Assembly: GCA_008632985.1 (NCBI GenBank) | Contig: QPGO01000144.1 | Span: 62,001-126,000, forward strand | From: Psammoneis japonica | Lineage: Eukaryota | Length of the DNA: 64,000 bases | Direction: 5' to 3' | Shown: piece after piece, positions 1 through 24,978 of the stretch | Position numbering within the stretch: the first letter of the stretch is position 1 | Layout of the letters: every line of letters starts with the position of its first letter | Notes under the pieces: generated by a model | Seen by the model: the letters and a program-made list of their open reading frames with translations, nothing else | What the model was told of the DNA's origin: nothing | Database searches by the model: none | Position numbers and translations under genes: made by a program

Positions 1-976
1 GCATTCAACCTCTTAATTGCCAGCCACTCCTGATGCATCTTTTTTTGTTTCATTGCAAGCTGCAGGCAGTGCAGGCATGTTTTTTGCTCCAGCTCCAGCA
101 AATCCTGCAGCATCCCATCCATCATCTTTGGGCTGCAACTCTGTTCACAATCTCTGCAGAGCATGCCCGTTTCCTCCGTTTCCTTGTTGTTGAGTGTGAA
201 CATGACACTGAGGAACAATGTTTCCTTGACATGCTCTCTTGCCTTTGCCATGTCTTGCATCACCTTGGTGTGATCCGCCACCCAATTGGCTGAGCTTGTC
301 TGCCACTCCACAATGACCATTGTCCTTTGCTGCTGCCACAGTGTTTTTTCTGGTGCGTGCTGAAGTGCACTGAAGCAAGGTGATGGATGTGGTTGAGTCT
401 TGTGGATGATGTGCATGTGACGGTTGTCTTTTTCCCTTCTGCACATTTTTTGCTTGCCTGGGCAGGGTCTTCTCCCCACATCTTTTTGTTTGGCTGCACA
501 TCTTGCTTTTCATCTTCAATGTCTGAACATTTGCTTGCCATGATGTCCAATGTCTCTTTGTGGCCAACTCTCTAACGGCTGTTGCTGCCATGCCAATCAA
601 CTCCCACTCAAAAATCAACCAAGTCTGCACTCAACAATTTGATTCAAAAATCAATCTGACACCTGCGCACCAACAAACGGCTCTTGTGAACAAGCATCAA
701 ATTGTTTCATCCTGCTTCCGCAGCTGTCTTTTTCCAATCAAACTTTTGGCTTGGCATGGCTTTTTGCCACCGTTGCCACTGCCACCCACAAAGTGCAGCC
801 CGCCCCAGTGTGTCTGCCACAACTCAATTGAGCCAGTCATCGCAAGCCACCATTTTTGTTTTCCAAGAACAGCAAATTGCTTGTCAGTCATCCGTTTCTG
901 CCTCTGAGAAAGACAAAGCAGCAAATCCCTGCACAGACTTTCAATGGAGATGAGGACCCACCCAGGAGCCCATGCG

Positions 977-1424
977 CAGCATGCATGCGGACAAAAGGTC
1001 ATTTTTGTCATGACCTTTGTGACATTTAAACTGTGACACGTCGCCGTGATGCATTGACTCTTACAAGCAACTGGACACTGCACTCCTCCCCATGCATCAC
1101 GCGACCTTGCGGCTCTTGCCAACGTGACATGACACTGAACGTGTTTGACGGAACAGTGTGGGTGCGTGCAAAGGAACACACAGAACTTGTGCAGAGTTTT
1201 GCGCATTCAACAGTGATCAACGTTGCTGCAGACAACTCCCACTCAGGGTTTTGAACCCCTGGTCTTCTGCCCAACTGATGTTCACGCAATGAACCACTCC
1301 GCTGTGAATTTACAAAGCAGCGTGCATGCAGACAAAAGGTTGTTTGTGTCATGACCTTTGTGACATTTAAACTGCAACACGTCGCTGTGATGCATTGGCT
1401 CTTGCAAGTGGCTGGACATTGCAC
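977..1424 (+). repeat. ~105-bp direct repeat, two copies (977-1083 and ~1319-1424)
   Basis: Both copies read gcatgc.gacaaaagg....ttgtcatgacctttgtgacatttaaactg...cacgtcgc.gtgatgcattg.ctctt.caag...ctggaca.tgcac. Differences are mainly tg/ca/ta/cg swaps. Confidence 0.85.
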
Positions 1425-1551
1425 ATGCCCCACCCCCCATGAAGAAGCAGAGGACAGGAGGAGGAAGAGGAGGAGGACAAATGTGATGATGATTCCTCTC
1501 AATGCGAAATGTTCCCTGCGCATGAATGGGAGCCAGTCCCATTCATGTTGA

Positions 1552-2709
1552 TTGATGAAGTTCAAGCCAAACTGGAGCGGCAAAGAGAGGTCACTTTTTC
1601 ATGGCAATCACATTTGTTTTTTGTCTGATTGTGCTGACATCATCACATTGATTTCTTGTTCTAACAGGAAGAAGGCCGCCGGTGATTTGTTGTCATTCGC
1701 AATGAACAAAAGTGACGATTGCGAGGAGGAGTCAATTGACCAGAAAACAAGCGAACTTCCAACCACTTGCATGGGTGAAGAGGACAAAAGCGAAGAGCCT
1801 GTTGACAATGAGCACAACCAAGTTGCACATTGCTCCGAGGGTGAAGAGGACCACAGCGACTTGGGAGGTTGTTTCGCAAGTGACAAAACTAACGGGGAAA
1901 CACACAATGTGCTGTGGTTGGGGATGACCCGTCCGCTCAATGCAAGGCAACTATCTTCTCAAGAATTGTGCTCTGAGAAGGGGGTGGCCTTAGCATCGTC
2001 CAACCAACACAGGCGAGACGAGGCCCGCACAATGGCATTTGAGGAATCTAACAAAACAATCACAAACGTCGTTCCAACAGTTTCTCTCCAAGACGGCCAT
2101 CCTGATCTGCACTTAAATTGCAATGTGAAAGCAAGAGATTTCATCAAGAGAGTCAAGCAGCAGTTTGAGAAACTTGTTGATTTCGACAATCATGGGTTCG
2201 ACCAAATCATGTTGGACTGCTGCTGGATGCCAGATGGAGAGTGGTGCGACAGTTGTTTTGGGACGACTCAATTTTTCCAAAATCTGGTTGATCTTCTGGC
2301 CTTGCTCTCCAAAAACAAAGAAGGGGGGGACATGGTGATTCCCTTTGCTCTTGCAACCTTCTTCCAGGTTGTCAAACAATGGAAGAAATTATTGGCTGTG
2401 TTCGACATGTGCACAATGGACAATGATGCTGCAAAGAGCCGTGCGAGCATGTTCTTTGCAAGCAACCTTGTGGCCCAAGAACAACAAGAACGGTGGTTGG
2501 GAAAGCCTTCCGATCAGGAAGAAGCTCATCTTGGAGTTTCCAAAGAAGACATCAGAACAAAAGCAATGAAAGGTGCTCGTGCCGCACTGCTTCACGTGCA
2601 CCACAATGACTTTGCCAATTCTGAAAGGATCAAATTCATCATGTTTGCAAGAAAGAGCCAGGAAATCACTGTGAGTGAATGGCAGATTGATGCGCGCATC
2701 CCATTTTAG
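1552..2709 (+). pseudogene. Hypermutated TE-associated ORF with possible class I SAM-dependent methyltransferase-like fold
   Basis: 385-aa Tyr-free ORF. Motifs VLWLGM, FDQIMLDCCWMP (restorable to FDQIILDYYWIP) and FFQNLVDLLALLSKNKEGGDMVIP. The 3' end runs into the element starting at 2667. Confidence 0.4.
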
Positions 2710-5017
2710 AAACAAATCTGACCAACACTTCCTTCTGTCCTGTGCAGCCCAAACAAACAGGGCCTTTTCTTGTGCTTCTGCCACTCCTGGACATTCTTCA
2801 TAAACCAAAACATTGTCCCCAATTGCTTCGACAGGGACAACCCGTGACTCAGGTGAGCACTGAGTCTTCTCAGGCGTTGAAAGCCAGTTGTTTTGTTTGT
2901 GATCAAGCTGCCAGCGACTGACCAAGTCTGCATGCTGATGCTGTTGCCTCACAGTTCTCTGGTCAATGTTGACAGGGCCTTCATCAAGACTCATGCTCGT
3001 CGTCCTTGTCTTGTGGATGAGAAGGGAAAAGAAGAACAACACACAAAAAATGGCGGGAAAATGGCAAACATTACATTGTCTTCCAGATTTTGATAATTCT
3101 TGCAGGTGTGACGTGTCTGCATTTTGATTTTTTATCTGGCATTTACAATGAATGTTGTTCTTTTTTATTTGCTGTCAAAATGAAGGACATCATCTCCGTT
3201 GAAACCCAATGACAGCCACATCAAAAAGTGAGTTGGACTGTTCATTGTTGCACACAAACACATTTTCAAATTTCAATGTCACTGACAACAATTTGTGCAA
3301 TGTCACAGAGAAAAACAGAGTGGCTGGCTGTCTCAACACGACCCAGATGACGGTTGCACTGTCAAACAGCAACACTGCTCTCATTGTTGCTGTGTGAAGA
3401 TCAAGATGTCGTCTTGAGCACCACCGGCAAAGAAGAGAAAGAAAAATGAGACCATTGAGCCAATGAGCCCAAGACTTCAGGCAGTGTTGAAGAGAACAGG
3501 TGCGCAGGCAGCGCATGGTGCATTGAAATCAGAAGCAGAGAAGGTGGCCAGAAATGATCTCTTTCCACAGGTGAAGTTTCTCAGTCCATCAGAATTGGCA
3601 AGTGATGGGAGCGTCTCAATGTTTGTCAAGAAACAGATTGCTGGTGGCAACATGGACACTTCAAATTGGTCAGGAACTTGGGAGGAATGGGCAAAAAAGG
3701 CGGTAAAAAGGCAAACCAACAATGGCAGAAACACGGTGTGTTCGGCCATTGGGGCGGAGGCAATGGCCCGCAAGTCAAGTGACCAATGTGTGTGATTTGA
3801 GAGTTGTGCGCATCTCACAAGAAGATGACGGTGATGCTTTGTCCATGTGGGCATTGTTGCTGAGGAAGAGGGAAAGGAAAAAGAAAAGAAACTCAAGGCG
3901 GCAGTCAGGAGGAAAAAGCAAAGCAGGAAAAAGTCAAGCCGTGACAAGAATGAAGAGAATGACATCCCGTTTGTGCCGACATGGGATCCGTTTAGCCTGG
4001 GCACTGTCACCGGCGGCAAACGAAGGAACAAGCAGGCATGCAAGTGGTTCTGTGATCACATCCCACCTCAAACCAAGCAAAAACAGGCACGGAGCAGCAC
4101 CGTCAAAACTGGGAATGCACAGGTCTCACAGTTGTTTGCGGCAGGTGACGAAGCTTTGGCGCCATCAGCTGTGGAGAATTGTTGGCAGGTGTGGGCATGC
4201 AGGAACAAGGAGGAGGCGGTGGAAGAATTGGGTGAGGAAATGGAGCCCGAAGAAACAAGGCCTGCCCCTCGGTGCACGAAGCCAAAGAAACAACGAGTGA
4301 CTTGGGGAGACGACGGAATCATTCGGTTCAACCATTTGCACAAAGAGGTGACGAAAGACAGAGACTCCAAGGAGGGCAAGGAGTTTGAAAAGTGGCATGT
4401 GGAGATCAAGAAAAGTGAGTGCAAGAAGTCCGGAGAAGCAAAAAAGAAGAAGAAGATGGCACCGACCGGTGACACGGAGAAGGTGAAGGCAATGAACAGC
4501 CCAATGGTGGAGAGCAGCAGGGACGACAATGGCAATGACGATGAGCAGGAGGAAGGCGCAAAAGGCAAAACGAATGATGGAGGAGACGATTCCGATGAAG
4601 ACGAGTCCAATGAAGACGAGTCCAACAATGATTGTCAGCTCAGTTTAAGAGAGTTGTAGCAAGAAAATGTGCACACAGTTGACACAGCACTCGGTCATTG
4701 CACTGCAGATGTAACAAGGAATTGACTTGACCGATGAAATGTTTTTCTCGTTTAAAACAATGTTTACGAAAATTGACAAACCAAGGTTTGTGTGGCAATG
4801 CAATCGCGCATTGGCATGTGGCAACAAGGTGGAGGCAGAAATGGTGATGTGGACACAGTGAAAAACAGCATGCACAATTCTTAACAAGTTGTTGCAATGT
4901 TGGCACACCAAACTTGCAACCAGAGGTTGGCCTGTCATCACATGACAACAAAGTTTTGCAATGTTTCAATGAATTGTCATCATGCAAATCTACACATTTT
5001 TAACATTTTGTGCACTC
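2667..5017. mobile_element. Internal-deletion derivative of the Plavaka/CACTA-like element at 29965-35698
   Basis: 2667-2965 aligns to 29965-30263 and 2966-5017 aligns to ~33679-35698. About 3.4 kb containing nearly all of the transposase is missing. Confidence 0.85.
3406..4659 (+). pseudogene. Element accessory ORF2 (copy 1), one intron ~3770-3849
   Basis: PAKKRKK NLS-like start, LFPQVKF..W..NGRN.V and WF.D..P..EALA...ENCW blocks, acidic tail, TAG stop at 4657-4659. Splice donor degraded to gcaagt. Confidence 0.65.
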
Positions 5018-5101
5018 TTGTGTGGCGCTCTTGCCGCTTCTTTGTCCTCTCCCCTGGATGAGACATCTGAAGAGCTCACCTTGCCCCCGGATCTGCCCGC
5101 T

Positions 5102-5493
5102 GATGGGTTTCAGCCCCAGGCGGGACTTCGTGTGACATTGGCCCGTGAATTCTGCGTGCGAGCTCCACAGCAAATTTGTGCTGCAATGAAAATGTGAATG
5201 ATCGCCAACAGAAAAAGAGGCAATTTTGCAAACGCATCTCCTCCTTCATGCTTGGAGCACATCAACAATGGTTTGCCCGGGTGTGTTCCAAAGACATCAA
5301 AGAGTGCACCCAGCGTGTTTTCATTCTCATGGCTGTTGAAATGGAAAGCCTTTGGCTTTGCAAAACAGGGAGTGTGAAACAATTTCACAGAACACAACAC
5401 GTGGAAATGCAGTGCACGACATGCGACGCGATCCAAAAATGATTGATGTCACAGTGCAGCAGTGCAAGGTCCCACCTGGAGCTGGAATGCATC
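5102..5493. mobile_element. MITE, GTTCCAG-TIR family (subfamily B), 392 bp
   Basis: Termini gatgggtttcagccccaggcggga / tcccacctggagctggaatgcatc. 4-bp TSD cgct/cact. Homologous to 63462-63859. Confidence 0.8.
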
Positions 5494-5499
5494 CACTGT

Positions 5500-8400
5500 C
5501 CCCCCCACCACTGCTAACTCGGATCCCTTGCACAGGGAGGCAGTCACCTGATCCACCAACCTTTTCACTCTCAGAGGAAGCTTTGTTGGAGCTGATCATG
5601 CTGTGCGAAAATTCCGGTGCTGCTTGTCAGTTTTGCAAGCAGTTGCTTGCCCTGTCACAATGATTTCACAAGAAGTGGAAATTTGATTGTTCCCAGTGTC
5701 TTGGGCCAGACTTGTTGGTGAAGAAACTCCACAAGAAGGTTTTCCTGCCCCAGCCTGACATTCGCATCATTGGCGGACAGGAAGTCACTTGCTTTTGCAT
5801 GCTGGACATGTTGAGAGATTTGCTCACCCACTCAATGTTTGACAATGAGCACAGCCTCAATGTGAACAAGTCCCTGCAGGCATGTTTCCACAAGTTCGTT
5901 CCTGTTGATGGGTGCAATCTTGGCAAGAACATGTCCAACAAATGGTGCTTCAAAACATGTGATGACCTCCCCAACAACTTTGACTGTGAGAAAGACTTGT
6001 TCTTGCCAATCAGCTTGTGCGCTGATCAGACAGGGGCTGATGCCTGTCAAAGGTGTCCCCTTGAACCCTGGTTGTTTTGTGTTCTTCTTGACAAGAGGTT
6101 GTGCTTGGCGTCACCTTGGGTTCATGCCAAGCACAGACAAGGGTGGGGCAAGTGGCGCACTTGATGAAAACGGCAATGTGAACAAAGACGGACAAGTGGG
6201 CAAGTCTTCTTCATCAATCATGCAGGTTTGCCATGACATGTTGTCTTTCCTCTCATAAGATTTGAAGGGACTTGGGTGGTGTTTGCATTGTGTCCCATCT
6301 CAACAAGCCAACACTTGGATGGACCAGGTCCACTTGAGCATTTGGAAAGGACAGTCCATTGGATGGCTGCCTCAAGAGGCAACAGAAGCTTGTGGCGGCC
6401 CTTCTTTTGCATCTGCACACAATGAACCCGCTGCAAAGCACCTTTGACAGTGTCAACTTTGGCAGCAATCTGTGGGGTGTGTTTTCAGCAATGGCTGATG
6501 ATCACCTTCATTCCTGGGAAGCAGGTGGTGTGGAGAACATCATGCAAGTCTTGCACTTTGGACTCACCAAGACAGAGAAGGAAAACTTTGAGATGGAGCT
6601 GAAAGCTGTCATTGGAAGCTGCAGATCCACGGCCTTGGTGCAACACCCAAGAGGTTGCTTGAGTTCTGGCTTCAGCAGAAAATGACTCTCCAGACCCACT
6701 CTGAAAAAATGGGTTTGCTGTTCCACCTGTGCACAGCAGTGCAATGTCTCAAGCCATGTGAGACAATGAAAAGGGCACATGAACAAAAGAAGAAACAAAA
6801 AACATTTCCCTCAACTGCAAAACTTGCCTCTCTGCAGAAAAAACCAAAGAAAAGCAAGAACAAAAAGGCAAATGCAATCAACAAGCCATCTTCCAATGTT
6901 TCTCAAGGAATTGATGACAGCTCATCTTCCAACAAGGAGAGCTTCAGTTGGTTGTGGCAAAAGATCTTGCTCATCCACGACTGCCTGTGGGCGCAACAAA
7001 AAGCAACAAAGAGTCACTCAGGAGGCTGCCTGAGACAGGGAAAATGCACAAAAGGCTGCTGAGGAGGCAGCACAAAGGAAGCCTCCTCCAAGGAAGAAAA
7101 TGACAAAAAACGCTTCCACCCACTGCTTTTCCCTGCAGGAAGGACACTTTTTTTGCCACGGACCATGGCAGCAAAGATCCTTTTGATCACAAATTGGGAA
7201 CAATCCAGTGTGTCATCAAGCACCTGAAGCTCCACAGATTTGCTTTTTTGCCAGAGGATGACTTCAATGAGTTTCAGCTGAATCAGCTGTTCATCAAATC
7301 TTGGAAGATTTTGAAAACCATCAAAAGCAAGGAGGATGATTTTTGCCCACCACATGACGTCCTTGACTCCATCACATGTCCCATTGTTGGGGACTGCTGT
7401 GATTGCCTTTTACAAAGAAATCAGGGAATGCTTTCAAACGTTGACATGTGCATTGACTCCAGGCAGTTGGCCACAGAGGAATCATGTGAAGGGGAGGATG
7501 TGGCAGTTCAGAATCCAGGCCAGTTCTCTTGCCCAATGGAGAATTGTGTTGTGAAGCAATTGACACACGGGTGCAACATCATTCAACATGATGACCTTCT
7601 CTTCTTTCTTGGAGCACATTCTTTGCTGCCATGCATTTTGTCATTGTTCCCACCATCTTCTGGGAGCAATGCAGAAGGATCATGCTGTGATTTGCTTTGG
7701 GACAAAGTGAGTGGTTGGCTGCATGGACACCATCCTGTGCCAGGGTGACAACTTGGCAGACTTTGACATGGGAAAGGTTGAAGCCCAGAACCACAAGGAC
7801 TTTCATCATTCAAGGCTTGGTGACAACATGCAATCACATGCATTGACAGGTGAGAGACTTTTGAAAACCAAAGCAAAGAAGATCTCCAAGGTGGCCCAGA
7901 AGCACAGTGAGGCCACTTTCCTCCAACAGACATGCAAACAAATTTGTGAAGCCCTTCTGTGCAGAAGGTGTGTGGATGAGATCGCCGTGCAGAAGTCGGA
8001 AGAAAACCTTGCATTGCATGGTCTTGTAGATGATGCATCCTCCATTGCCAATGGTGATGGAGAATCCAAAGTTGCCCAACACATGCCACACTTTGTCTTC
8101 CAGCACGATTGTTTTGAGGACCTGTTGGCACTTGATTGACATGGTGACAAAAGCCCAACTGACAAGGAAATGAGCACACCTTGCTGAGCCTTCCTTGAAG
8201 CCATCCAAGAACTGGAACCAGACCAACCCAGGTTTGACATGTGGAATGAAGCAAAACTTGCAAATGGTGACTGCCTCTGAGCTTGCCCACTGTGCTGCTC
8301 CAAAGAGGGCCCCTGGTTTGATTGGGCAGAAGTCCATTTTGACATGGATGATGCATCTTGCAAACCCCGCCCTGCATGTGTCGTCAGTTTCTACAAGGAT

Positions 8401-8772
8401 TCTGGTGGGGTTGCAAAGGCAATCATTCATTCTGTTGACTGCAAGTTGGTGTCCACGTGGGTGACCGAGTCCGATTTCGGGGACAACAGATTGTTCACTC
8501 ATCATGTGCAAGAATTTCAATCATCTGGAAGACCATCAATGCAGAACATTGGCCTTCATTCAATGCATCGTGGCATTCTCTGTTCCTGTCAAAGCAACAC
8601 AAAGACCCGGTCCCCCGAAGTGTGCAATCAAAACCAGAGGAGGGAACACCAAGTGATGGTGGTGAAACCCCGCTTGGACTGGGCAAAGATGTTTTGCAAA
8701 TGGACAAGGGAAATGATGTCAAGAGAGAAGAGTGCTGAGGGCACTGACAAGTGCATCTTTTGGAGCAATTGA
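5500..8772 (+). pseudogene. Degenerate Plavaka/CACTA(CMC)-like transposase, second subfamily
   Basis: Motifs across frames: LFLPISLCADQTGADACQRCPLEPW (cf. LY.DKTG...YPLEP), AWRHLGFMP, CHDMLS, FDSVNFGSN.WGVFSA..DDHLHSWEAG, GERLLKTKAKKISKVAQK. Frameshifts, and the I.GD block appears deleted near 6270. Confidence 0.7.
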
Positions 8773-9525
8773 AATGCAGACAATGTGGGCTTGCATTGGA
8801 GGCTGGATTGCCAAGCTGTTTTCTTCCAGTGTGGCTGGAAATGATGCACTGCCACAACGAGAGCCTCCGTGCAATCTTGGGTTGGAGATGCCATGTTCAA
8901 GGACTTCCTCTCCAGCCATCGCTGCTCTGTCAGTCTCCTTCAATGCCTTGTTGATGCCTTTTCTCCGCCTTTGCAAACCCACTCTCTTTTTGTTGTTGCT
9001 TTTCCACATGTCAGAGCAGATCAAATCTTTGGTCTCAGTCTGGCTTGCTTCAACCAGCAGATCCACAAATGATTGCTTGTCCTCCTTCTTGAGGTTTGTC
9101 AAGTTGTTGCCCTTGTGGTGCACCAATGGAGCCAGTTTGTCTTGAATCAGATTCCTGATTGCATGAGTTGCATCCATCATCTTCTTTTTCATCTGGGCTG
9201 AAGCATTGTCTCCAGCGATGGGCCGCCAGTGGGGTGAATCAAAGCTGCACAGCAGGGACCCATTGACAACTTTCTCCTGCATGTCCTCCATGGACACAGG
9301 ATCATCCATCATGAGGCCATTGTCATGCTTGGTGCATTTTTCAGCAATCTCAGCATCATTGTGCAGTCTGACAGCATGAACCCATGCATTGTGGGAATGC
9401 TTTTGCTTGATGCATGCAGCAAGAAACTCTTTGTGAGCTTCTTCAACTTGTGCATTGGTTGCAATGCCACCAGCCAACACACTTGTGAGTGACTGCTTGG
9501 ATTCCTGCAACCTGATGTGGCACCT
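8770..9525 (-). pseudogene. Hypermutated ORF remnant of unknown function, cut by a MITE
   Basis: Protein-like, Tyr-free ~250-aa stretch (QESKQSLTSVLAGG...KKMMDATHAIRNLIQDKL) convergent with the transposase. Confidence 0.35.
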
Positions 9526-9746
9526 GACGCGTTCCAGACGTAGGTGGGAATCCGTGTGACATTGGGCCCGTAGACTTCTACGTGCGAGCTCCGCAGCAAA
9601 ATTGCACGGCAATTAAAATGCCAATGATCGCCAACAGAAAATGAGGCAATTTTGCGAACGAACAAACTCGCACATGATTGAAGCACATCATTTTTTACTT
9701 GGCCAGTTGCATTCTTCAGACATTGAAGAATGCAACTGGCGCATTG
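9526..9746. mobile_element. Truncated MITE, GTTCCAG-TIR family (subfamily A), inverted relative to 31981-32376
   Basis: Starts gacgcgttccagacgtaggtgggaatcc, the reverse complement of the right part of the 31981 copy. Second TIR absent. Confidence 0.8.
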
Positions 9747-9933
9747 ACATTCTCACAGGATTTTGCTTTCTCCTGCAACCTCTGGGCCTCCGCAGAGTCA
9801 CACCCACTGTTTCATCCATGACACCTGACATCTGGAGGCCATCAAGACCAAGATCGCCATCTCCTGCAAGGTCTGTTTCAGCATTGTTGTCATTGGATTT
9901 GCCATTGCCAAGAGAGTTTCTTCAATGTCCGAA

Positions 9934-10160
9934 TCAAAAATCCTTCAAGAGAGTCTTGTCACCAATGTCGCGCTTGAAGCAATTGTCTTTGATGCAAAGC
10001 TCTCCCAAATTGGCAAATTTGTTGAGAATCGTGAAATTGCTCATGAAGGAATTGTTGTTGAGATGAAGTTTCACAAGAGACATTAATTCTCCCATTGCAG
10101 TTGGAACTGGGCTGGCGAAGTTGTTGTTGTTGAGTCCAAAGATCCCAAGAGCTGTTCCAA
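9934..10160 (-). pseudogene. Hypermutated leucine-rich-repeat gene fragment
   Basis: ALGIFGLNNNNFASPVPTAMGELMSLVKLHLNNNSF...LGELCIKDN matches the plant-type LxxLxLxxNxFxGxIPxxxGxL repeat, with LYL->LHL and LYI->LCI. Confidence 0.6.
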
Positions 10161-11977
10161 ACACCCCTTTTTCAAAAAAAATCACGTCAAAATCAATCGG
10201 GCAAAAAGCACCCAGAAAACTTTGATTTTGGATTGTTTGATGTGGTTTTTCATGTTGGCCAGCAGCTGTCAAATCAAAAATTGATCTTGACGACACACAT
10301 GAAAAATGAAGTTGCAAAATCAAAGCAACATGACCCATCAAAATGTCGCTCCACAGTGTTGAGCTTCATTGTCAATGTCCAAACCACACCAACCAACAAC
10401 AAAAGCATCACTCCTGGCTCAATCATTGTCAACTTGTGGCAACAAAAGTGACCTCTTTAGAATGGCAGCAACTCATTTGATTGCAGGGCCAGTCTCACAC
10501 CAGTGTGAAGTGCTTGCAGTTGACTCGTGCTGTTTTCAGATGAAGCAAAGCTGTGCATTGTTTTCTTCTTGACATCAGCCATGATAGATTTTGGATCCCT
10601 TGTGGTGGAAAGAGGGGACGAATGAATGTTGCCATTGATCTTCTGCATTAAATTTGGTCATGTGCAGTTCTGTTCTTGCTGTGAGCATCACTCCAGATGC
10701 CTTGTGGCTTGTGTTTGTGGCCACACGACACAATGACAATTTTTTTGGGACAAACAAGCTGCTGCACTCTGCATGTGAGGTGCAAAAAAAGGAAAATGTG
10801 TGACACCACTGGATCCACCACATTGATTTTACAGACATTTGTGGCTCCGCTTTTGCCCTGGCCTTTGGTGCCCCAGATGCTTTGTGGCTCACTTTTGTGT
10901 CAAAACGACACAAGAAAATTGTTTTTGTGCAGCAACAAAAAATCCGTGGTGCTGTTCTTTGCGTGAGCCACAACATTTCACTTTGTCTTTTTTGAGGTGC
11001 ATCATGTGCAATCAACGCCATCACAAAAGGGGTTCAAAAGTGTCGTCGTGTGTGTTGCTTGAGATCGGATGATCGGAGCGAGATGGCACCAAGCACTGAC
11101 AGGCTGAAGCCGTGTTTGCCTGTTTGTGTGGTTGAAAGATTTGGTTAACTTGGATTTGGACAACTTCATTTTTCACTTTTTGGGTGTGGACGGGTCCGGT
11201 GTGTGAGAAACGTCAAGTGCTCATCTGCAATCCACCGTGCCCACCTGGTTCTAAAGAGCACCCAGAGTCTCAAGAGTGGCAGGGTCCAAAGCGTCATTGA
11301 AAAAGAGCACCACCTTTTCTGCACGGCTCTCACTCTCTTTGCTGCCACTGCTGGTTTTGTCACTGGCAATTGCTGCAGTGATTGCTGCAGCAGTCACAAC
11401 AGCAAGAACAGCTGGCACAAAATCAATCCAACAACTCCAAACAACAGACACTTTCTTGATGCTCGTTGATCATTGGTGCTGGCACTCTCCCACCATCGGT
11501 CACCCCCATTGCTGCATTGCTTTCATTGGGCACATGTGCTGCCTCTGCCATGGCACCCCTCTGGTTCTGAAGGGCTTGAACTTCTTGCAGCATGGTTTCG
11601 CCGGAATGTGGCTCCTTGCAAGCGGAGTCATCGTTTGCAACTGAAGCAGCCATCTCTTTTGGGCCGGAGTTTGTCGCAATGAAGACAGTGGCACAGAGCA
11701 GTTTGAAGCCTCATGCTGCAAGCTTCAAATGATTGGCATCCCTGCGGACTGGCCCACTTGTGTCTTTTGTGATGCAAAATGAACACATCATTTGCGCCTG
11801 ATGACCAGCACCAATCTGAAATGGGGCGTGTACTTGCAGCATTAGATTGCCCAAGTGTGTTGTGTTCTCTGATGACGAAAGAATGAAATAAACGCTAAAC
11901 TACAACATGTGACAGCAGAACTATAAGTGATGGTAATTTAAAATAGCCAGAGTTATTACCCAAAGATATGACTGGAG

Positions 11978-14215
11978 TTAGGAGAGAAACAACTGGTTGC
12001 TGCTGCTTCCAGGAACAAACATTTGCAACAACCGATCCGTGGGACAAGAACTTTCGTCGTCCACTGTGCAAAACTTGTTGAACCCATCAAAGCACCAATC
12101 CTTGTCGGCCAGTCTTGTAAACAAAATGACAAAGCAGCCAATGGTAGCAAAGGCAATAATAGTGGCCAAAATGACAATCAAAAGAGATGCCCTTCCCGTG
12201 CGCTTAATGTAGCCATCAATCTTCTTCTTTCCAACGTAGGCGCCAATCAAACAGACAAAGAAATAAAAGACAGCGTAGGATACCGGGACGAGACCGGAAG
12301 TGACAAAAATCACGGCGACGCTCGAGGAGGTCAGGACAATCATGGTGGCTGTTGTCGCTGACGAGACGCGTGGATGAATGCCCATGACCAGCATGAGTGG
12401 TCCCAAAACCATTCCACCTCCAATGCCAATGAGCCCAGCGACAACACTGTTGTATGAGAAAGAGTTTGACAACCAAGTGCAAAAAATCGTCAGCGACGTG
12501 TACAAGAGAAAGACAGCATTCTTTCCAAGCCAGCCCGTTCTATTACTCACCCGGCAATGAAAGTAAAACACCCATAAAATCTAAGCGATTTCATGTCCCA
12601 AACTGGATCGTCGTGTAGGTAGGGGTATTCGACTGCCTCACGTTGAGCTTGTTTAATCATGAGCTTCCTTCCAAAGTAAAGGGCAAATCCGAAAATCCAA
12701 ACAAACTGAAGTACAATCAAGACCGCATACGCTGGAGAATCGCAAGTGATTCCAACCAAACTTTCCACGCCCTTGCCTCCCTTGAAGAGGGTCAAGAGGA
12801 ACAAACCAATCCACAAAATCAGTAACGCAATAATCTTTTCACGGGGAAACTGACGAGAATCGCTTTCGAGATACTCTTTGCGGAGTTCCAGTTTTTCGGA
12901 TTCCGACAAGGTGTCGTCGGCAGTGTCTTCTGTTGACATCTTGTCGTCGTCGTCAGAGGCATCCTCCGGCGCGTGCTCTTGCATCTTGGAGTCGTCAACC
13001 TCGATTTGCTCTTCGTCGTCCTTGACGACTCCCTCCACCAGTACGCCAGAAGCTTGGTTTTCCTCCCCAGAAAGCGATGAACTCGATGCATCCTCATCAG
13101 TACCAGATTCTTGGGGTGTTCCTTCCTCCTTGGCTTCCGGGTCGTCTTGCACCTTTTTGTCTTGTTGCAACTCTTCTTCTTCTTGTTCTTCTTCTTCGGC
13201 GGCGGCCGCTTCGGCTTCGGCTCGCTTGGCTCGTTCCGCCGCTCGAGTTGCAAAATACTTTTTATAAGTCTTATAAGACGTAAAGGACAAGACGAGACCG
13301 GCAATCAAAAGATACAACCAGTTGGGAAGTACCCTTTGGACAAGGACACCAAGCACAGCTCCCGCCATTTCCATGGGGGCCAGGTAAAGTGCCTGTTAAA
13401 AGTTATAAGCAGTTTCAATGAGAAAGAGGGTTAGACTAGGAATATCCGTGACGATACCCAAACAAAACAACAAACTCATTCAATGCCAACATACCATATC
13501 GTATGAAATGAGCGGACGGGTATAAAACTTGTTTCCCTTTTGTAAATACTCCTCTTCTTCGACTTCAGTGATTTCCTCTTGAACGTGAATACGCTTCTCT
13601 TCATCGTAATGGCCCTTGTCGCTACGAATCTTGTTGTTGGGATGCCGATTGCGAGAATTGAGAAACAAACCACCTAAACTGGCCCCAAAGATACTCGCTT
13701 GCGACAATCCTGATGCCTGTTTGGGTGAGAACTGAAACAAGAGAATACCCAGCGGCACGTAAATGCCACCACCTCCCACACCGCAAGCGGTCGCAACACC
13801 CGCCGTGATGAACCTGTAGGATTGAAAAAGAGGAAGCGAGGTATATAATGTTAGCAAAGAAGGATAGGTAAACTAGAAAGCAACTAGAGAATTTCTAACG
13901 CCAGACATACCATACAACCATACCAACCAAATCGTTCCAGAGGTAATGATAATGGTTCTCGAAATCGTTCGTATCCGTGTTGTGCTTGCGAAAGAGCTTA
14001 CGATCAATGCACATATCATGCACGATATCCGTGGATAGGAATCCGGTGCAATCCAAACAGTCCGAGACTTGCATACCCCCACAATTGGGGCACGTATAGG
14101 TAGTTCCCGTGGTGCATTTCGAGTCTCCTCCCGACGTCACCTGAAACAAAGAACAAAACAACAAGAGCGCAATCCAAGCGATGCGCTTATTGGCAGAGAA
14201 CCTCATTGTTCTCAT
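11978..14215 (-). CDS. TauE/SafE-family (sulfite exporter-like) membrane transporter, 4 exons
   Basis: GVGGGGIYVP and GLIGIGGGMVLGP motifs, multiple TM helices. GT-AG introns at ~13910-13814, 13494-13393 and 12550-12447 keep the frame. Confidence 0.88.
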
Positions 14216-15053
14216 TGTATTCTTTTTTATGAGAATAGAATTGATGTCAAATCAGAGAGAGAACAGAGTACTCGAGCAAATGAGACAAAAGTGGTATCCC
14301 CCTCGTGTCTTTTGATGGAATGCAGCTGTTGTTGCGGCCAAAGACTTATGCCGTGCCGGTATTGAGTTTGTGCGTTATGTTCCGTGTTGCGGTTTTCAAC
14401 GCTTCGTTTTCGCGATGCCTGTGTTGGTTTTCGTACATGTTCTACGTGTGACGTGATGGATTGAACATCGCACGAATAGTTTCAATCACCAACTAAGGGG
14501 CTGAATATTATATTGAAATTTCTAATTCTTTCGCTCGCACATCCCAACCTTACCAGACATCATGAGCATATTCTACCTGCTGTTTTGGGTTTGGTCGGTC
14601 GCTGGATGGATTGTTAATACAGGAGTTGCAGTGCAGAGAACAGACAAACACCGGTTGACGGTGCCGAGAGACAACCAGCCAGCTACTCACTCATGCTCCC
14701 AACGGTGGCACATGAGACCTTTTCGAGGGGACCATGGCAACCTATCTCGATCGAGTCGAGCAAGAAAAACAAACCAGTAAAGGAATGGACTACTATTCAG
14801 GATGATATTCTACTTCCCTGGAATGGCTCAACCTTCAATCTGCGGGGGTCCGACGACACAGAACACGAGGCCCATGCTGGAAACCATCAGAGCTGCGAGC
14901 ACGACTCAGTAGGTCTATATTATGCACTTTCAGGGTTAGGAATGTAACTCTCAGGTAGGAGCAGTTGCAGTCGACTTTTTGGCTCGTTTTGATAATCCGG
15001 CGTATCAAAGAGTAATCGATATGAGGAGAACCGTCTCGTTGTATAGCATGCAA

Positions 15054-15362
15054 TGGACGTGTGACGCATCCCTTGGCCGAATGCGCTCAAGCGATCTACA
15101 AAGCCAAAAATAGCTCATGAGTTTGCACCACGTGTGTGGGTTGGAGAGTACCAATGTGTGCCTATCACACTTTCATGATACATGGATGCTCTTTTATCGT
15201 GACTTAAATGCTGTGGACGTGACGCATTCCTTGGCCGACTGCACTCAAGCGAACTGCACAACCAAAAAACTTCGTGAGTTTGCAGTTTGCACCACGTGTA
15301 CGTCGGAGAGTATCTGAACGTGTGCCTGTCTACATCATTAATAATTCATCGTGACTAATGCC
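15054..15362 (+). repeat. ~155-bp tandem duplication, intergenic
   Basis: Two diverged copies beginning tggacgtg(tg)acgcat.ccttggccga and ending atcgtgact(t)aa(a)tgc. Confidence 0.75.
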
Positions 15363-15658
15363 ATCTCCAACAACGATAGATTCTCTGCACCGAGGCAAGA
15401 AGTAGAGATAGCACAGCTAAGGCCACTTTGTTAGAAGATTCTGTTCTCTAAGCTTCTGTAAAACACAGTGTCAAAGAAATGCTGCTCTCGTTAAAACTAA
15501 AAGCAACCTATAATATATATAATATATGGCACGTGTTAAAATGTATTGAACATGTACAATCCCAAATGCAGATCATCTTCCAAAGACGTCGTAATTGTGG
15601 GATGCGTCCGAACTCAGACGGCAACGGACTAAGCAATAGAAAATGCGTCGTGCATTTT

Positions 15659-18600
15659 CTACCTCCAATCGCTTCCGTGTTTCATTGCCTTCTTGCTTTC
15701 GGCGGGAACAGTTGCAATGAATCGCGTCACTTCAGTGCCTGCGAATTCGCTGCCCTCGACGATAAATCCACTTGGCACATCTTCTTCCTCTGCAACATAT
15801 ACCTGGTAAAACCCACGCCCATCTAAAGATGATATGGAAAAGCCGCAAAGTGAGTTCTCTGTTCAACAACAGCAGCAGCGCAGCAAAAACATTGAGCGGA
15901 TCACGTACCAACGCAACACAGCCCGTCTTCAAAATAATCAAATATAGTAAAACTACAGTCTGCACCTTCCGGGACATAGTGCGTTTCGGAGATTAATCCC
16001 CCCTGCCGTTCTGCGTATGTAGCGACTGCACGTAAAACAATTGTCTCGTTGTTACAACTCAGCGTCCAGCCGGTTTCCTCGGGAGCATTGTCCAGCTTAA
16101 TGACGATAGTAACGGGGGCCATATCTTCAGCCATTGTCGGAGCGGCAGTTGGTGCCTTGGGTTCATCGTCTTGTTTGTCATCTCCTCCTTTGTTGTGAGT
16201 CAATATCACAGCAAGAGCGACGACTATAGGAATAACAAGAAAGAGGACAGCAATCCATCTACACCATCGTCGCCGTTTTGCATCTTTCCTGCTGCTGACC
16301 CATGTTGCCCATAGGAAAGAATGTTTCTTTTCTTCTACCAGCTTGTCTTGCTGCTCCGCACTTTGCTCCGCAGCAGACACGACAACTGCTTCCGCATCAA
16401 TGAATGCCGCATTTTCATTTTCTTCCATAGATCCTGAGGAACTCGAGTCTGAATCGGACTCGTCACTACTACCATCGTCGTCCTCGTAGCTTGATTCATC
16501 GGACCCGCTGCCCGATTCTTCGTCTTCTTGAATCTGGTCTTCAAGCGGTGAAAACATATCCTCTTCTTCACTGTCATCGTCTTCGTCCGTCTCTTCATCC
16601 TCATCTTCAAATACCTCAAGCGGATCGTTGTTAATAGCACCTATTGCATACGCACCGGGTGACCTAAATCGTTCGTCCTGTGGAGTGACTCGAATCTTAC
16701 TCACACGTTGCATTGACGGCTGGAGTGGCATTTGTGGGCGTATTGCAACAGGGGGGGGAGCCGAGGAGTCTTCGAAATCATCATCATCCTCGTATTCATC
16801 TTCATCGTATTCATCGTCGTATTCATCGTCATCTTCAGAATCGCTGTCTTCGTTAATGGAATCCAAGGATCGGCCCGTTTGCAACGCAGATGGCCCATAA
16901 TTGTCATCGTCATTTGACGCGGAATATGCAACGCTTCTTCCAGTAGAAGGAGTGACGCCCAAAATTTCATCAGCCAGTTGCTCCGCTTCTTTCATTTTCT
17001 TTTTCATCAACGCGTCTTTTTCTTCTTGACTAATGTTGCTTATTCCATAGTACGAGCCGGATTTGTTGAGATTTGCACCATCGCCGTGAGGGTTTTCCTG
17101 AGGAAGTGATTTAGAGGATGCCGTGACGCCCATTCGCTCATCTGCTAATCGATCGGCATCCTTAATTCTTTGTTTTGCAAGCTCATCCTTTTCGTCTTGA
17201 GTCAGTTTCTTGGGAGGCGCCTTTTTCATAGCCGGAGCGACAGCACCCATGCGTTGATCCGCGAGTCGATCAGCCTGCTTAATTCGCTCTTTAGCCAATT
17301 CATCCTTTTCCTCCTGAGTCAGTTTTTTTGAAGGCGCCTTTTTTATAGCCGGAGCGACAGCACCCATGCGTTGATCCGCGAGTCGATCAGCCTGCTTAAT
17401 TCGCTCTTTAGCCAATTCATCCTTTTCCTCCTGAGACAGTTTCTTCGGCGGCGCCTTCTTCATGGCCGGAGCGACAGCACCCATGCGTTGATCTGCAAGG
17501 CGATCCGCCTGCTTAATTCGCTCTTTAGCCAATTCATCCTTTTCCTCCTGAGTCAGTTTCTTCGGCGGCGCCTTTTTCATGGCCGGGGCGACAGCACCCA
17601 TGCGTTGATCCGCCAATCGATCCGCCTGCTTGATTCGCTCTTTCGCCAATTCATCCTTTTCCTCCTGTGTCAGTTTCTTAGGAGTCGCCTTTCTCATAGA
17701 TTGGGATACTGCACCCATGCGTTGGTCCACGAGTCGATCCGCCTGCTTAATTCGCTCTTTAGCCAGTTCGTCCTTTTCTTCCTGGGTAAGCTTCTTCGGA
17801 GGCGCCTTTTTCCTAGCCGGAGCGACACCCATGCGTTGATCTGCAAGTCGATCTGCCTGCTTTATTCGCTCTTTAGCCAGTTCATCCTTTTCCTCCTGAG
17901 TCAGTTTCTTTGGGGACGCCTTTTTCATGGATCGGGATGCTACGCCCATGCGTTGATCCGCGAGTCTATCCGCCTGCTTTATTCGCTCTTTAGCAAGTTC
18001 ATCCTTTTCTTCTTGAGTCAGTTTCTTTGGGGACGCCTTCTTCATAGATGGGGATGCTACGCCCATGCGTTGATCCGCGAGTCGATCCGCCTGCTTAATT
18101 CGTTCTTTAGCAAGTTCGTCCTTTTCCTCTTGAGTCAGTTTCTTCGGCGGTGCCTTTTTCCTAGCCGGAGCGACACCCATGCGTTGATCTGCAAGTCGAT
18201 CTGCCTGCTTTATTCGCTCTTTAGCCAGTTCATCCTTTTCCTCCTGAGTCAGTTTCTTTGGGGGCGCCTTTTTCATGGATTGGGATGCTACGCCCATGCG
18301 TTGATCTGCGAGTCGATCCGCCTGCTTTATTCGCTCTTTGGCAAGTTCATCCTTTTCCTCCTGAGTCAGTTTCTTTGCAGGCGCCTTTTTCTTGGCCGGG
18401 GCGACACCCATGCGTTGGTCGGCAAGCCGATCAGCCTGTTTTATGCGCTCTTTCGCCAGTTCATCCTTCTCGAGTTGGGTAAGCTTCTTAGGAGGTGCCT
18501 TTTTCATGGATTGGGATATTGCACCCATGCGTTGGTCCGCGAGACGATCAGCCTGCTTTATTCGCTCTTTTGCCAGTTCATCCTTTTCCTCCTGAGTCAG

Positions 18601-18981
18601 TTTCTTTGAAGGCGCCTTTTTCCTTGCCGGGGCCACACCCATGCGTTGGTCGGCAAGCCGATCCGCCTGCTTTATGCGCTCTTTGGCCAGTTCATCTTTC
18701 TCGAGCTGAGTTAGTTTCTTCGGAGGCGCTTTTTTCATAGATTGGGATGCTACGCCCATGCGTTGATCCGCAAGTCGATCCGCCGCTTTGATTCGCTCTT
18801 TCGCCAGTTCATCCTTCTCGAGCTGGGTCATCTTTTTTGCAGGTGACGAACTAGCAGCTGCAGCGCCCGACGCTGCAGTGCTTCGCTTCTTCTTTTTCTT
18901 CTTCTTGCTGCTGCTGCTACCGGTGCGTGAAGGACCATCAATGCGCTTTCTATCGATTTCATCCGTTTCCAACGTCGTCAT
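15659..18981 (-). CDS. Single-pass membrane protein with 15 tandem 38-39-aa repeats and a small C-terminal extracellular domain
   Basis: Repeat KKLTQEEKDELAKERIKQADRLADQRMG(VA/AV)...KKAPP, acidic linker, PGAY motif, TM (IAVLFLVIPIVVALAVIL), PTAAPT stalk, domain LDNAPEETGW...DGLCC. An intron at ~15908-15823 joins DGRGFYQVYV...GSEF. Confidence 0.8.
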
Positions 18982-19016
18982 GGTGATTTGGATACAAGTG
19001 TGGTGTTGTAGTGATG

Positions 19017-20410
19017 ACAATGGACTATGACTCTTTCCGGTTAGGTCGTGTGATTTGGCTCGACAGAAATCAGTAGTCTAAGCAGCAGAAGAAACGCACG
19101 TAAAAGTGGGGAGATAGAAAGCTCAAACGGGACGGCATTTCAGTGACCATTTTTGAGTTTCGGTCATTGCAAGTGTTGCTATTTATGCCTAGAAGTCATT
19201 TCTTTGTTGTTTTCTTTGGTACATTAAGAATGTATTTAAATGTCGTTTTTGACGCTATGACCATAGAGGCATAAATACCGCCTCAATCGATTCGTGCGCG
19301 TTGATGACTGCCGAAAATCGAGGATCACGCAAGCAACAGCAATCTTTCGCGCTGTAGAGTCATTTACGTAGAAATGTGTAGAACAGTACCAAGATAATTA
19401 CTGAAAAGTCTGTCTGTCTGTCCTTAGTGAATTTTAACTTCGCGAAAAATGGACTTGACTGTTTTCTGATCAGGTGTATTTTTCTTCAACACATTTGCAA
19501 AAATACACCTGACCCGACAACAGTCAAGTCTATTTTTGCACAAATTGTGTGAACATAACAGTTTCAGTACAAAAACGTGTAGATTCCACAGGCGTCCACA
19601 ATTGTTTTGTGCTTTTTTTCACATTGCGGGTCATTTTCGAAAGACTCCCATTGAACGCCGTCAAACTCTGTGTTCTCTAAGGCAGGGTCCTGCCTTGTGT
19701 CTACATGCATCTTTCCAAGAAAGCTGTCAGCAGTGGCACAGTCTCTCAGCAGAACTAAATGGAGGCAAGTCTGGACACCTGCCGAGAGACTGGCGAGCTT
19801 GTGGCAATGCTGGCAATGCAGAAAAATGTGAGGCAGCGCGGGGTTGGCATGCAGCTCCAGCAGCGGCAATGGACTGTGATTCTTTCTGGTTGGGCCATGT
19901 GATTTGGCATGACAGAAATCAATGAGAGCAGAAGAAACACACGCAAAAGTGGGGCAGATTAGAAAGCTCAAACGGGGCAGCATGTTTCAGCAACCATTTT
20001 TGAGTTTCAGCCATTGCAAGTGTTGCTGTTTGTGCCTGAAAGTCATTTCTTTGTTGTTTTCTTGGGTGCATTGAGAACGCATTTAAATGTCGTTTTTGAT
20101 GTCATGACCACAGAGGCACAAACACCGCCTCAATCAATTCATGCGCATTGATGACTGCCGAAAATCGAGGATCATGCAAGAGCGCCGACAAACCACCACA
20201 CAAAACTCTGTTCTCCAAAAGGCAGGGCCCTGCCATGTGTCTCCATGTGTCTTTCCAAGAAAGCTTTCAGCAGTGGCACAGTCTCTCAGCAGAACTGAAT
20301 GGAGGCAAGTCCAGACATTTGCCGAGAGAGACTGGTGAGCTTGTGACAATGCCGGCAATGCAGAAAAATGTGGGCAATGCGGGGTTGACATGCAATTTCA
20401 GCAGTGGCAA
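19017..20410 (+). repeat. ~530-bp tandem duplication (19017-19866 with MITE; 19867-20410)
   Basis: Both units start caatggact.tga.tctttc.ggtt.gg and end gca..t.cagcag.ggcaa. The second unit is heavily TA->TG/CA mutated. Confidence 0.9.
19334..19653. mobile_element. MITE, CAATGG-TIR family, with internal palindrome
   Basis: Termini caacagcaatctttcg / cgaaagactcccattg. Absent from the sister duplicate. Homologous to 26978 and 36100. Confidence 0.8.
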
Positions 20411-20811
20411 AATCGAGACTTCGCATCGAGCAGGGTTTCCAGACAAACAAAACTTGTTGCGTGCAGTGGCAACTGCTCGCAATGTTAAGAGAGAAAGAAG
20501 ACAATCGCCAGGGGTGGTGGAATCCCCCATCTAATGCGATTTATTTTTTGATTTTTTGGTTCGGCGCCGATTAGGGGGACTAAAATCTAATCTTTTATAT
20601 GCAACCACCAATTTTTATTAATACAATAACTTACGTGGATGACGTAGCAATACAGTACCAGTGTTCCTGTAGCACTTACGTCGACGGCCGATTTATGCCT
20701 TTCAAAACCCTTCAATTCTGAATACTTTATTCAGATTCAAACAGGCTGTCGCGAGTTGGTGCAGAACAACACAAAACGGCATCACTTCTCCAGCGCTCTC
20801 TTCCCCGCACC

Positions 20812-21786: not shown

Positions 21787-22365
21787 CCGGAGGATGATCC
21801 AACACAGTGTGTGTGTGGCAGTTTTCTGTCGCTGTTTTCCTCTTGTGTATCCGTTACTTGCACGTGATATATACTGGGCTGTCTGTTTCTCTACCAAGTC
21901 AAGAAATAATGAAGTATCATCAGGAGTAGTAGAGCTATGTATGCTGTACTTTTGCGCCACGAATCGACCCGATTGGATCGATCGATTCTGTTTTGGCAGC
22001 AAGCATTTTTCCCCTCTTCAACCTTTCTATAGTTCATATATGTTTACACCATTCCTTCTTTAGCTATTTACATGATGTGTATTTTGTTATCATGGCTGGT
22101 CGACACAAAATCGAACGAAAAAAAAATGAGGCTCGCTCGATCGCGGCTTCCTTTTTTCGAAATGATTCAATACTTTCTACAAGTCCCGATGATTGAATTT
22201 TATATATATTGTAATTCATTAATATCGAACATTCATTTCGCGCTAAAATTTCGAAGTGATGCTCACGCGCTCACGCGATTGACGGCTGACTTGCGACTTT
22301 TCGCCACTTCACCCTCTCAGCTTCTCGCACTCACTGTGTTATTTCAGTCAACACCTTTCAGCAAC

Positions 22366-24913: not shown

Positions 24914-24978
24914 CTATTGCAAGTCAAAGTGAAGACAAATCAAGATGACTAGCTATAGGTCGCATACGATACTGCTCC

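Follow-up and report, generated by a model that had tools for sequence, protein, structure and literature searches.

Why do long blocks of a gene-bearing stretch of a eukaryotic genome contain next to no TpA dinucleotides? The question is raised by 64,000 nucleotides of Psammoneis japonica (contig QPGO01000144.1 of assembly GCA_008632985.1, positions 62,001 to 126,000, forward strand; hereafter the window, with positions counted from its first base), for which a preliminary description had proposed that adenines in 5'-TAY-3' (Y, pyrimidine; R, purine) are changed to G, either by a DNA adenine deaminase or by mutagenic repair of deaminated 5-methylcytosine. Fungi are known to defend their genomes by point hypermutation of repeats, in which only C:G pairs are changed. 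Here the repeats of a phototrophic stramenopile have lost almost every TpA by A:T>G:C transitions, and their CpG has decayed as well.

Hypermutated blocks in the window

The window is made up of hypermutated and normal DNA, as follows (O/E, observed-to-expected ratio of a dinucleotide):

1 to about 11700: hypermutated block 1; TA O/E 0.01-0.14, CG 0.16-0.50, TG/CA 1.58-1.78
About 19650 to 20250, about 600 bases: small hypermutated island within normal DNA; holds the mutated copy of a duplicate at 19 kb
About 25300 to 40400: hypermutated block 2; RTAY 3 against 176 expected, YTAR 35 against 98 expected
About 55750 to 64000: hypermutated block 3; RTAY 3 against 97 expected, YTAR 16 against 54 expected
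12000-19400, 20300-25200 and 40700-55600: normal genic control DNA; TA O/E 0.36-0.68, CG about 1

In 2-kb bins the O/E of TpA is 0.01-0.14 in 1-12000, 26001-40000 and 56001-64000, compared with 0.36-0.68 elsewhere, and that of CpG is 0.14-0.63 in the blocks, compared with 0.73-1.12 elsewhere; TG and CA rise in the blocks to 1.5-2.0, and GC content, at 0.44-0.50, is unchanged. The block edges, near 11.6-11.8 kb, 25.3 kb, 40.4 kb and 55.75 kb, are sharp to about 500 bases when viewed in 500-base bins. The 34,702 bases of the blocks hold 152 TA, 787 CG, 3737 TG and 3705 CA, and the 27,203 genic bases hold 1027, 1571, 1889 and 2042, respectively. At genic scaling this amounts, per strand, to a loss of about 2376 TA and CG and a gain of about 2429 TG and CA and, since loss and gain match, the changes are essentially all transitions, to TG or CA. 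Survival, here and below, is the count in the blocks divided by the count expected at genic density (34,702 block against 27,203 genic bases); it is about 0.11 for TA overall and about 0.39 for CpG, TA thus being erased more completely.

Judged by its coding content the window is nuclear DNA resembling that of a raphid pennate diatom; the long frames outside the blocks are those of eukaryotic proteins (BEACH/PH_BEACH, FG-GAP repeats, NUDIX and a VTT domain), and the BEACH protein is most similar, at no more than 77% identity, to metagenome proteins and to proteins under the names Bacillariaceae, Nitzschia, Amphora and Seminavis. As DNA free of TA lacks TAA and TAG and retains TGA as its sole stop, long open frames fill all six frames of the blocks; 84 open frames of at least 150 amino acids (aa) occur in the window and 116 of at least 110 aa in the blocks. 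Dead TA-free elements therefore resemble long open frames, and gene callers would over-predict in such DNA. Single N bases stand at 39373 and 56107, both within TA-free blocks.

Surviving TpA steps and their flanks

The survival of a TA step depends on its flanks. RTAY is nearly extinct in the blocks, with a survival of 0.015 (6 left against 411 expected, from 322 in the genic bases), the mixed contexts YTAY and RTAR survive at 0.109 (73 in the blocks and 525 in the genic bases), YTAR at 0.320 (73 left against 228 expected, from 179) and the word TTAA at 0.65 (43 in the blocks and 52 in the genic bases). In positions 1-11600 none of the 47 TAs is RTAY, where 137 were expected, 25 are mixed (224 expected) and 22 are YTAR (76 expected). 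The preliminary description was therefore right that gtac, atat, gtat and atac are essentially gone from this part, and the survivor words that it quoted are also present there, namely TTTAAA (1027, 1368, 4753), TCTAAC (573, 1662, 2049), CTTAGC (1991) and TTTAG (2707, 3993, 10458). The shares of the contexts differ from the genic shares in blocks 1, 2 and 3 taken singly (chi-square, p=5.6e-9, 1.3e-12 and 9.4e-7, respectively), and likewise from those expected from each block's own NT and AN flank frequencies (p=0.002, 0.0003 and 0.045). A second baseline, consisting of 18,475 bases of four metagenome contigs with non-depleted relatives of the repeat element at 30-32 kb, returned survivals of 0.012, 0.103 and 0.308 for RTAY, mixed and YTAR contexts (p=5.5e-30).

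A Poisson model was applied to the survivor table, the two strands being treated as independent targets and the rate being made to depend on the base 3' of the adenine. This model fits all ten strand-symmetric context classes (deviance 8.9, 6 degrees of freedom, p=0.18), with fitted 3'-flank rates of 2.31 for T, 1.44 for C, 1.11 for G and 0.22 for A. A uniform rate for all contexts is rejected (likelihood-ratio test, LRT, 160), and with it the equal depletion of all NTAN contexts that the preliminary description had named as fatal to its proposal; a plain R/Y rule also fits worse than four 3'-flank rates (LRT 50, p=1e-11). Loss at TAT is no slower than at TAC, loss at TAG is nearly as fast as at TAC, and the clearly spared context is TAA, above all TTAA. 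Of the TAY preference proposed earlier, the flank bias and the strand logic are borne out, but plain TAY is too simple, the order read from the survivors being T > C >= G >> A.

The changed A:T pair thus preferentially has a pyrimidine 3' of the adenine, T-A-Y becoming T-G-Y, which is the same as R-T-A becoming R-C-A on the partner strand. With the two strands as independent targets, RTAY, in which both are exposed, is brought near extinction, YTAY and RTAR are left in an intermediate state, and YTAR and TTAA survive. A strand-wise flank rule is the kind of trace left by sequence-specific enzymes, and it offers a handle for an enzyme search. There is also a hint that A at position +2 protects, TACA surviving at 0.16 against 0.02 for TACC, and TAGA at 0.26 against 0.05 for TAGC.

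Some surviving TAs may be held by selection, in CTAAC near intron-like ends. This branch-point-like word holds 5 of the 47 survivors of 1-11600 (573, 1662, 1890, 2049 and 5515), and the copy at 1662 is followed, 4 bases downstream, by an AG resembling an intron end. Higher TA (5-14 per 500 bases) and higher CG are found in the block sub-stretches 31750-32350, 9250-9750 and 4500-5000, two of which belong to one repeat family (9526-9746 and 32156-32376, 93.7% identical); these sub-stretches may be younger insertions in which the process is incomplete.

Direction of the change

Two neighbouring copies of a duplicate bear on the direction in which TA has changed:

19000-19340, plus strand: unmutated duplicate copy; 18 TA and 18 CG; proxy for the ancestral state
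19850-20190, plus strand: mutated duplicate copy; 2 TA and 11 CG; relative to 19000-19340, 14 TA>TG/CA and 11 CG>TG/CA

The counts reported earlier for this duplicate were reproduced, three of four YTAY sites having gone to TG and three of three changed RTAR sites to CA. A larger set, of ten intra-window paralogue pairs obtained by self-comparison, contains 63 TA>TG/CA events. At informative sites, in which one strand reads TAY and the other TAR, it was the TAY-bearing strand that changed in 29 of 39 cases (p=0.003; 28 of 38 after removal of one event counted in two overlapping pairs), and in 24 of 30 when only sites with identical flanks in both copies are considered (p=0.001). Likewise, strand-symmetrised bookkeeping of Y..Y tetranucleotides yields a gain of 941 for TG as against 352 for CA.

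A second kind of data comes from Tyr codons (TAY) in two open frames of repeat elements:

30194-32047, minus strand: 618-aa repeat-element frame; 0 Tyr; opposite the 16 aligned Tyr of P0121, the sole homologue, it has 11 Cys, 3 His and 2 other residues
1552-2706, plus strand: 385-aa repeat-element frame; 0 Tyr; the 7 Tyr of its homologue, P0122, read Cys 3, His 2 and other 2

No Tyr is present in the 1003 aa of the two frames, and the Tyr residues of the homologues are aligned with Cys (TGY) in 14 cases, His (CAY) in 5 and other residues in 4. The four-rate model, for its part, predicts the total of the alignment directions well (29.9 predicted, 29 observed). The samples are small, with 39 alignment sites and 19 Tyr codons; the pyrimidine-over-purine contrast is backed by both kinds of data, survivors and directions, and the order of G and A by the survivors only.

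Mutation in place on repeat-rich DNA

Whether the change took place in the DNA where it now lies can be read from pairs in which both copies are mutated, and its reach from a frame that straddles a block edge:

2969-5018, plus strand: repeat copy, with its partner at 33683-35698 (plus strand); both mutated, 90.7% identical over 2012 columns
25047-26033, minus strand: FG-GAP-repeat host-gene-like frame; its 5' two thirds (25383-26033) lie inside block 2

At 37 dinucleotides one of the two repeat copies has TG and its partner CA, and the mutated pairs together hold 95 such discordant dinucleotides, as against 0 in a genic control, the NUDIX paralogues. As TG|CA discordance arises only from the independent resolution of an ancestral TA or CG, mutation occurred in place, after copying. 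In addition, 33 of 34 one-kb windows show a balance of TG and CA, both strands being hit alike.

The process is not confined to mobile elements, as the FG-GAP frame was hit as well, though only where it lies in the block. This host-gene-like frame has 0 Tyr in the 217 aa encoded inside the block (25383-26033) and 3 Tyr in the part outside, and its paralogue at 43655-45718 has, in a protein-level comparison, Tyr where the in-block frame reads His or Cys. The nucleotide match of the NUDIX/FG-GAP regions ends at 25052, just short of block 2. The NUDIX gene itself belongs to a segmental duplication (24233-25052 and 42665-43496; BLAST identity 87%, and 88% over 818 aligned columns) in which the substitutions have a normal spectrum, and an FG-GAP-repeat gene is next after each copy.

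The process appears to be tied to repeats. In run X1, 6913 contigs matched positions 1-20000 at a likeness of at least 80%, piling up at 668-6003, 9339-10005 and 19344-20000; the summed depth, which is not a copy number, reaches 1e3-6e4 over 668-6003 as against 58 over 12007-16675. The stretches 6004-9338 and 10006-11339 have little extra X1 cover and are equally TA-free, and of the two neighbouring 19-kb duplicates, 850 bases apart, only the copy inside the island was mutated. With low-cover stretches TA-free and one duplicate spared, the pattern looks more like that of a chromatin domain than of strict homology sensing. X1 contigs match 8040-17257 with 0-1 differences, including the TA-free stretch 8040-11600, and one of them spans 10419-17257 without a difference; as independent contigs reproduce the TA-free sequence, it is not an assembly artefact.

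Base specificity and the decay of CpG

In the mutated alignments A>G was found, per strand-site, at 31/72 for TA, 11/177 for AA, 8/94 for GA and 17/128 for CA, as compared with 5/71, 9/122, 4/131 and 6/103, respectively, in a genic control pair. The A of TA became G in 31 cases, T in 3 and C in 1, and the blocks show no reduction in the O/E of AA. In a pair of mutated copies from which nearly all TAs have gone, other sites differ in only 56 of 2012 columns (about 3%), and it follows that TA mutates about two orders of magnitude above background; it also mutates faster than CpG. Variants in the X1 contigs on 1-20000 total 278 for A>G, 285 for T>C, 251 for C>T and 262 for G>A, with 36-73 for each transversion.

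The CpG half of the process looks like ordinary decay of 5-methylcytosine with a 5'-T accent, its TG and CA shares being equal on the two strands. The alignments contain 54 CG>TG and 43 CG>CA changes, and these outcomes have no R/Y flank bias (Y..Y, 11 TG and 10 CA; R..R, 19 and 17). All CpG contexts are reduced, from a survival of 0.16 for TCGA through 0.30-0.32 for ACGA/TCGT and CCGA/TCGG to 0.65 for GCGC, a flank dependence that is roughly multiplicative per strand, with the accent on a 5' T; in the alignments the corresponding strand bias, 27 against 17, is not significant (p=0.17). No nucleosome-like periodicity of the surviving CpGs was seen. The numbers of surviving TA and CG in 500-base bins are weakly correlated (rho 0.25, p=0.04), and clustering of A>G near mutated CpG is visible only as this weak window-level correlation, TA loss being saturated and former CpGs standing about 1 per 17 bases.

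Adenine deamination as a proposed cause, and its rivals

Our tentative preference is that the blocks may be repeat-rich nuclear DNA hypermutated in place, on duplex DNA, by a base-modifying enzyme, with adenine deamination as the favoured chemistry. The agent would act on chromosomal DNA inside a silenced or repeat domain and would convert adenine into hypoxanthine, which is read as G, needing a T on the 5' side and preferring a pyrimidine on the 3' side; beside it, 5-methylcytosine would be deaminated at CpG, most strongly at TCG, by the same enzyme or by a second one. CpG would thereby become TpG or CpA, and TpA likewise, even more completely. A DNA adenine deaminase appears to be the most economical reading, in that it would need one step and would account for clean A>G and for the 5'-T requirement, which is of the kind found in TadA-type enzymes. 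The more specific proposal of a defence resembling repeat-induced point mutation (RIP), in which a natural deaminase at silenced repeats converts adenine to hypoxanthine at 5'-T-A-(not A), beside or together with C>T at (T)CpG, is somewhat doubtful. Candidate enzymes may be sought among the stramenopile-restricted deaminases fused to SAM and Tudor domains that are described in the passages of Iyer et al. (2011; PMC3239186) drawn upon here. In a Pfam scan of 136 open-frame translations of the window no match to a deaminase family was obtained.

Several points weigh against adenine deamination. We infer the deaminase from a mutation signature, and A>G at TAY is indistinguishable from T>C at RTA on the partner strand; moreover, we know of no natural deaminase that acts on adenine in chromosomal duplex DNA. 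All results come from one 64-kb window, the baselines are proxies for the ancestral sequence, and the survivors may in part be newly made TAs or TAs kept by selection, so that survival is not a pure rate. The Tyr codon test leans in the expected direction, with 14 Cys of 19 as against 13.3 predicted, but is not significant alone (p=0.064). The four-rate model fails on the directions of the single classes, where it does worse than a coin flip (twice the log-likelihood difference, -4.9), the reason being the TTAG/CTAA class, which runs 4:1 against prediction, its TAA strand having been hit four times and its TAG strand once; the model having failed as a predictor of direction class by class, the claim of direction is confined to the R/Y contrast. 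In contrast to classical RIP, in which both copies of a duplication are mutated, only one copy of the 19-kb duplicate is mutated. Finally, TACG survives at 0.10 as against 0.02 for TACC and 0.04 for TACT, a comparison in which CpG decay confounds the +2 position. The TadA-like word U-A-C-G, to which the preliminary description had appealed, is thus not specially favoured, TAT also being lost at least as fast as TAC, and we do not file the process under TadA.

An unlikely, though serious, alternative places the modification on thymine. In silenced chromatin a dioxygenase of the TET/JBP type, or another thymine modifier, would oxidise T at R-T-A to 5-hydroxymethyluracil or 5-formyluracil, which would mispair with G and give T>C; C>T could be increased by the action of that enzyme on 5-methylcytosine at CpG. 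R-T-A to R-C-A describes the signature no less well, and both erased steps would consist of a 5-methylpyrimidine 5' of a purine, if the CpGs are methylated. TpA is the preferred position both of 5-hydroxymethyluracil in the DNA of dinoflagellates and of base J in the telomeres of kinetoplastids; 5-formyluracil causes G to be misincorporated; and TET/JBP genes travel with KDZ/Plavaka transposons in fungi, of which the window offers a weak Plavaka-like lead. Nevertheless, T before G is not hit, and since TG accumulates a thymine enzyme would have to read the 3' A and not the methylpyrimidine alone. The 5' preferences of the two changes also differ, T>C being favoured after a purine and C>T being strongest after T (TCGA 0.16, GCGC 0.65), and the literature on hydroxymethyluracil, among the matches listed, concerns only dinoflagellates and kinetoplastids and no diatom.

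Biased repair of T:G mispairs is a less probable explanation still. An MBD4/TDG-like or Vsr-like enzyme on methylated repeats would resolve T:G mispairs born in replication at TpA to C:G, which fits the exclusive outcome TA>TG/CA, the co-location with CpG decay and the weak correlation of TA and CG survivors (rho 0.25). The second-best G:T context of TDG is the one formed at a TpA step, and the depletion of CTAG in E. coli has been attributed to very-short-patch (VSP) repair. Such repair should, however, protect CpG, and here TA is erased more than CpG; a TA mutation rate about two orders faster than background is high for a process limited by polymerase mispairs, and to our knowledge no such flank rule has been described for enzymes of this kind. 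If either thymine oxidation or biased T:G repair were at work, the blocks would exemplify a new kind of influence of silencing marks on the composition of genomes.

Error-prone patch repair by the Y-family DNA polymerase eta (Pol eta; motif WA, where W is A or T) after excision of deaminated 5-methylcytosine, essentially the mutagenic-repair option of the preliminary description, is very improbable. TA is one of the two WA dinucleotides, CpG decays in the same blocks, and former CpGs are dense enough to place every TA in a repair patch. The option nevertheless fails the AA test that was proposed along with it, AA not being hit (11/177 against 9/122 in the control) nor lowered in O/E, and it fails on the spectrum, since the A of TA became G in 31 of its 35 changes (the others being T 3 and C 1), and Pol eta at WA gives many transversions. 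We also know of no dependence of Pol eta on the 3' flank.

Editing of element transcripts from A to I by an ADAR-like enzyme, followed by reverse transcription and reinsertion, is hardly credible. A>G with a preference for 5' U/T is ADAR-like, but the 3' preference found here, Y over G, is opposite to that of ADAR; the strand balance in 33 of 34 one-kb windows and the 95 TG|CA discordances do not fit an RNA route, nor do the hits in a host-gene-like frame and in block sequence of low contig cover, one of two adjacent duplicates is untouched, and the loss of CpG would be left unexplained. Finally, the view that no mutation process is involved, the blocks being foreign or virus-like DNA, elements selected against TA and CG (joint avoidance of CpG and UpA is found in RNA viruses and some transcripts) or a sequencing or assembly artefact at modified bases, is equally hard to credit, since Tyr codons have been destroyed and not synonymously avoided (0 Tyr in 1003 aa, Tyr>Cys/His relative to homologues), an unmutated duplicate lies 850 bases from the mutated copy, different copies disagree at one and the same site, TA is at a normal level in relatives from elsewhere, and X1 contigs reproduce TA-free 8040-11600.

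Comparison with known systems

The blocks share with RIP of ascomycetes (Neurospora) a dense, transition-only mutation of repeat-rich blocks with sharp edges, in which copies are mutated independently after insertion and open frames are ruined. RIP, however, generates TpA, its C>T changes falling mainly on CpA, whereas the blocks lose TpA, an A:T pair being changed, and gain CA; the GC content of the blocks remains steady at 0.44-0.50, without a drop; and the organism is a diatom-like stramenopile and not an ascomycete. A second parallel is the TpCpG hypermutation of repeats in Pucciniomycotina, for which the portions of Horns et al. (2012; PMC3318451) used here give a target that is strictly TCG and report no A:T change. 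With that system, as far as those portions describe it, the blocks share C>T at CpG in repeats and a preference for 5' T (TCGA being lowest, at 0.16); they differ from it in that all CpG contexts are reduced and in that the TpA half of the process has no counterpart there. RIP depends on a methyltransferase of the RID/DNMT4 or DIM-2 type and on a sexual phase. DNMT4, which is present in many diatoms, is related to fungal RID according to the part of the source consulted, its function being unknown (PMC9998398).

The blocks also recall, in their TA context, several processes that act on adenine or on T:G mispairs. TadA and ADAT2 convert A to I, read as G, with T or U immediately 5' and, in the natural substrate U-A-C-G, C on the 3' side; early evolved TadA-derived DNA editors preferred YAC, and ADAT2/3 of Trypanosoma brucei reportedly also deaminates C in DNA. 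As with these enzymes, the target A is preceded by T here. The natural enzymes, though, act on tRNA, and the DNA editors are laboratory-made and need single-stranded DNA, whereas the blocks are chromosomal DNA hit to the same extent on both strands, in which TAT is lost no less readily than TAC and TACG is not the best word. The action of Vsr, with its depletion of CTAG, and of MBD4/TDG is similar in that repair of deaminated 5-methylcytosine turns T:G into C:G, and hence TA into CA or TG; the Vsr effect is, however, genome-wide, modest and restricted to one tetranucleotide, and the one described here is local and near-complete (O/E down to 0.01), with another flank rule. Phase 2 of somatic hypermutation (Pol eta, WA) and ADAR hyperediting likewise give A>G in a TA context, but in the blocks AA is spared, transversions are rare, no strand asymmetry exists and the 3' preference is for a pyrimidine.

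Full-text searches of a literature that omits most subscription journals turned up no account of TpA and CpG being erased jointly in repeats, whether of diatoms or of other organisms. We rate the process as a new variant of repeat-directed hypermutation, the chemistry of which would be new in kind if adenine deamination is true. If the RIP-like deaminase proposal holds, this would be the first hypermutation defence directed at A:T and the first such system outside fungi, and at the same time a natural counterpart of the laboratory adenine base editors; an adenine deaminase acting on chromosomal DNA would, moreover, be new biochemistry of interest for base editing.

Repeat elements and other frames

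The 618-aa frame is possibly part of a Plavaka/KDZ-like transposon, which we regard as a lead only. A Pfam search with the 116 block frames of at least 110 aa gave only two matches, both below the cut-off (Plavaka, E=0.0095; DC_STAMP, E=0.0091), and no Pfam family was found for the homologues of the element proteins or for their metagenome relatives; a homologue search for 32699-33694 (minus strand) likewise found none. The relatives of the 30-32 kb element in the four metagenome contigs (L001-L004), at 38-49% aa identity, occur as long intact frames of up to 1088 aa, and the contigs have a normal TA O/E of 0.50-0.66.

In the normal DNA next to block 1, contigs of a further run, X2 (recorded as 'DNA?'), match 11922-14366 (minus strand) with three skips of 97-104 bases, at 12446-12551, 13391-13494 and 13811-13909, the ends of which are CT..AC and hence GT..AG when read on the minus strand. 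The contigs of X2 have the look of spliced cDNA, from a gene that would end some 100-300 bases away from the edge of block 1. Further along, 15901-19077 (minus strand) holds a 1058-aa open frame without a Pfam family, and within this frame lies a tandem array, at 17125-18845, with a step of 117 bases (39 aa) and units that are 74-85% identical.

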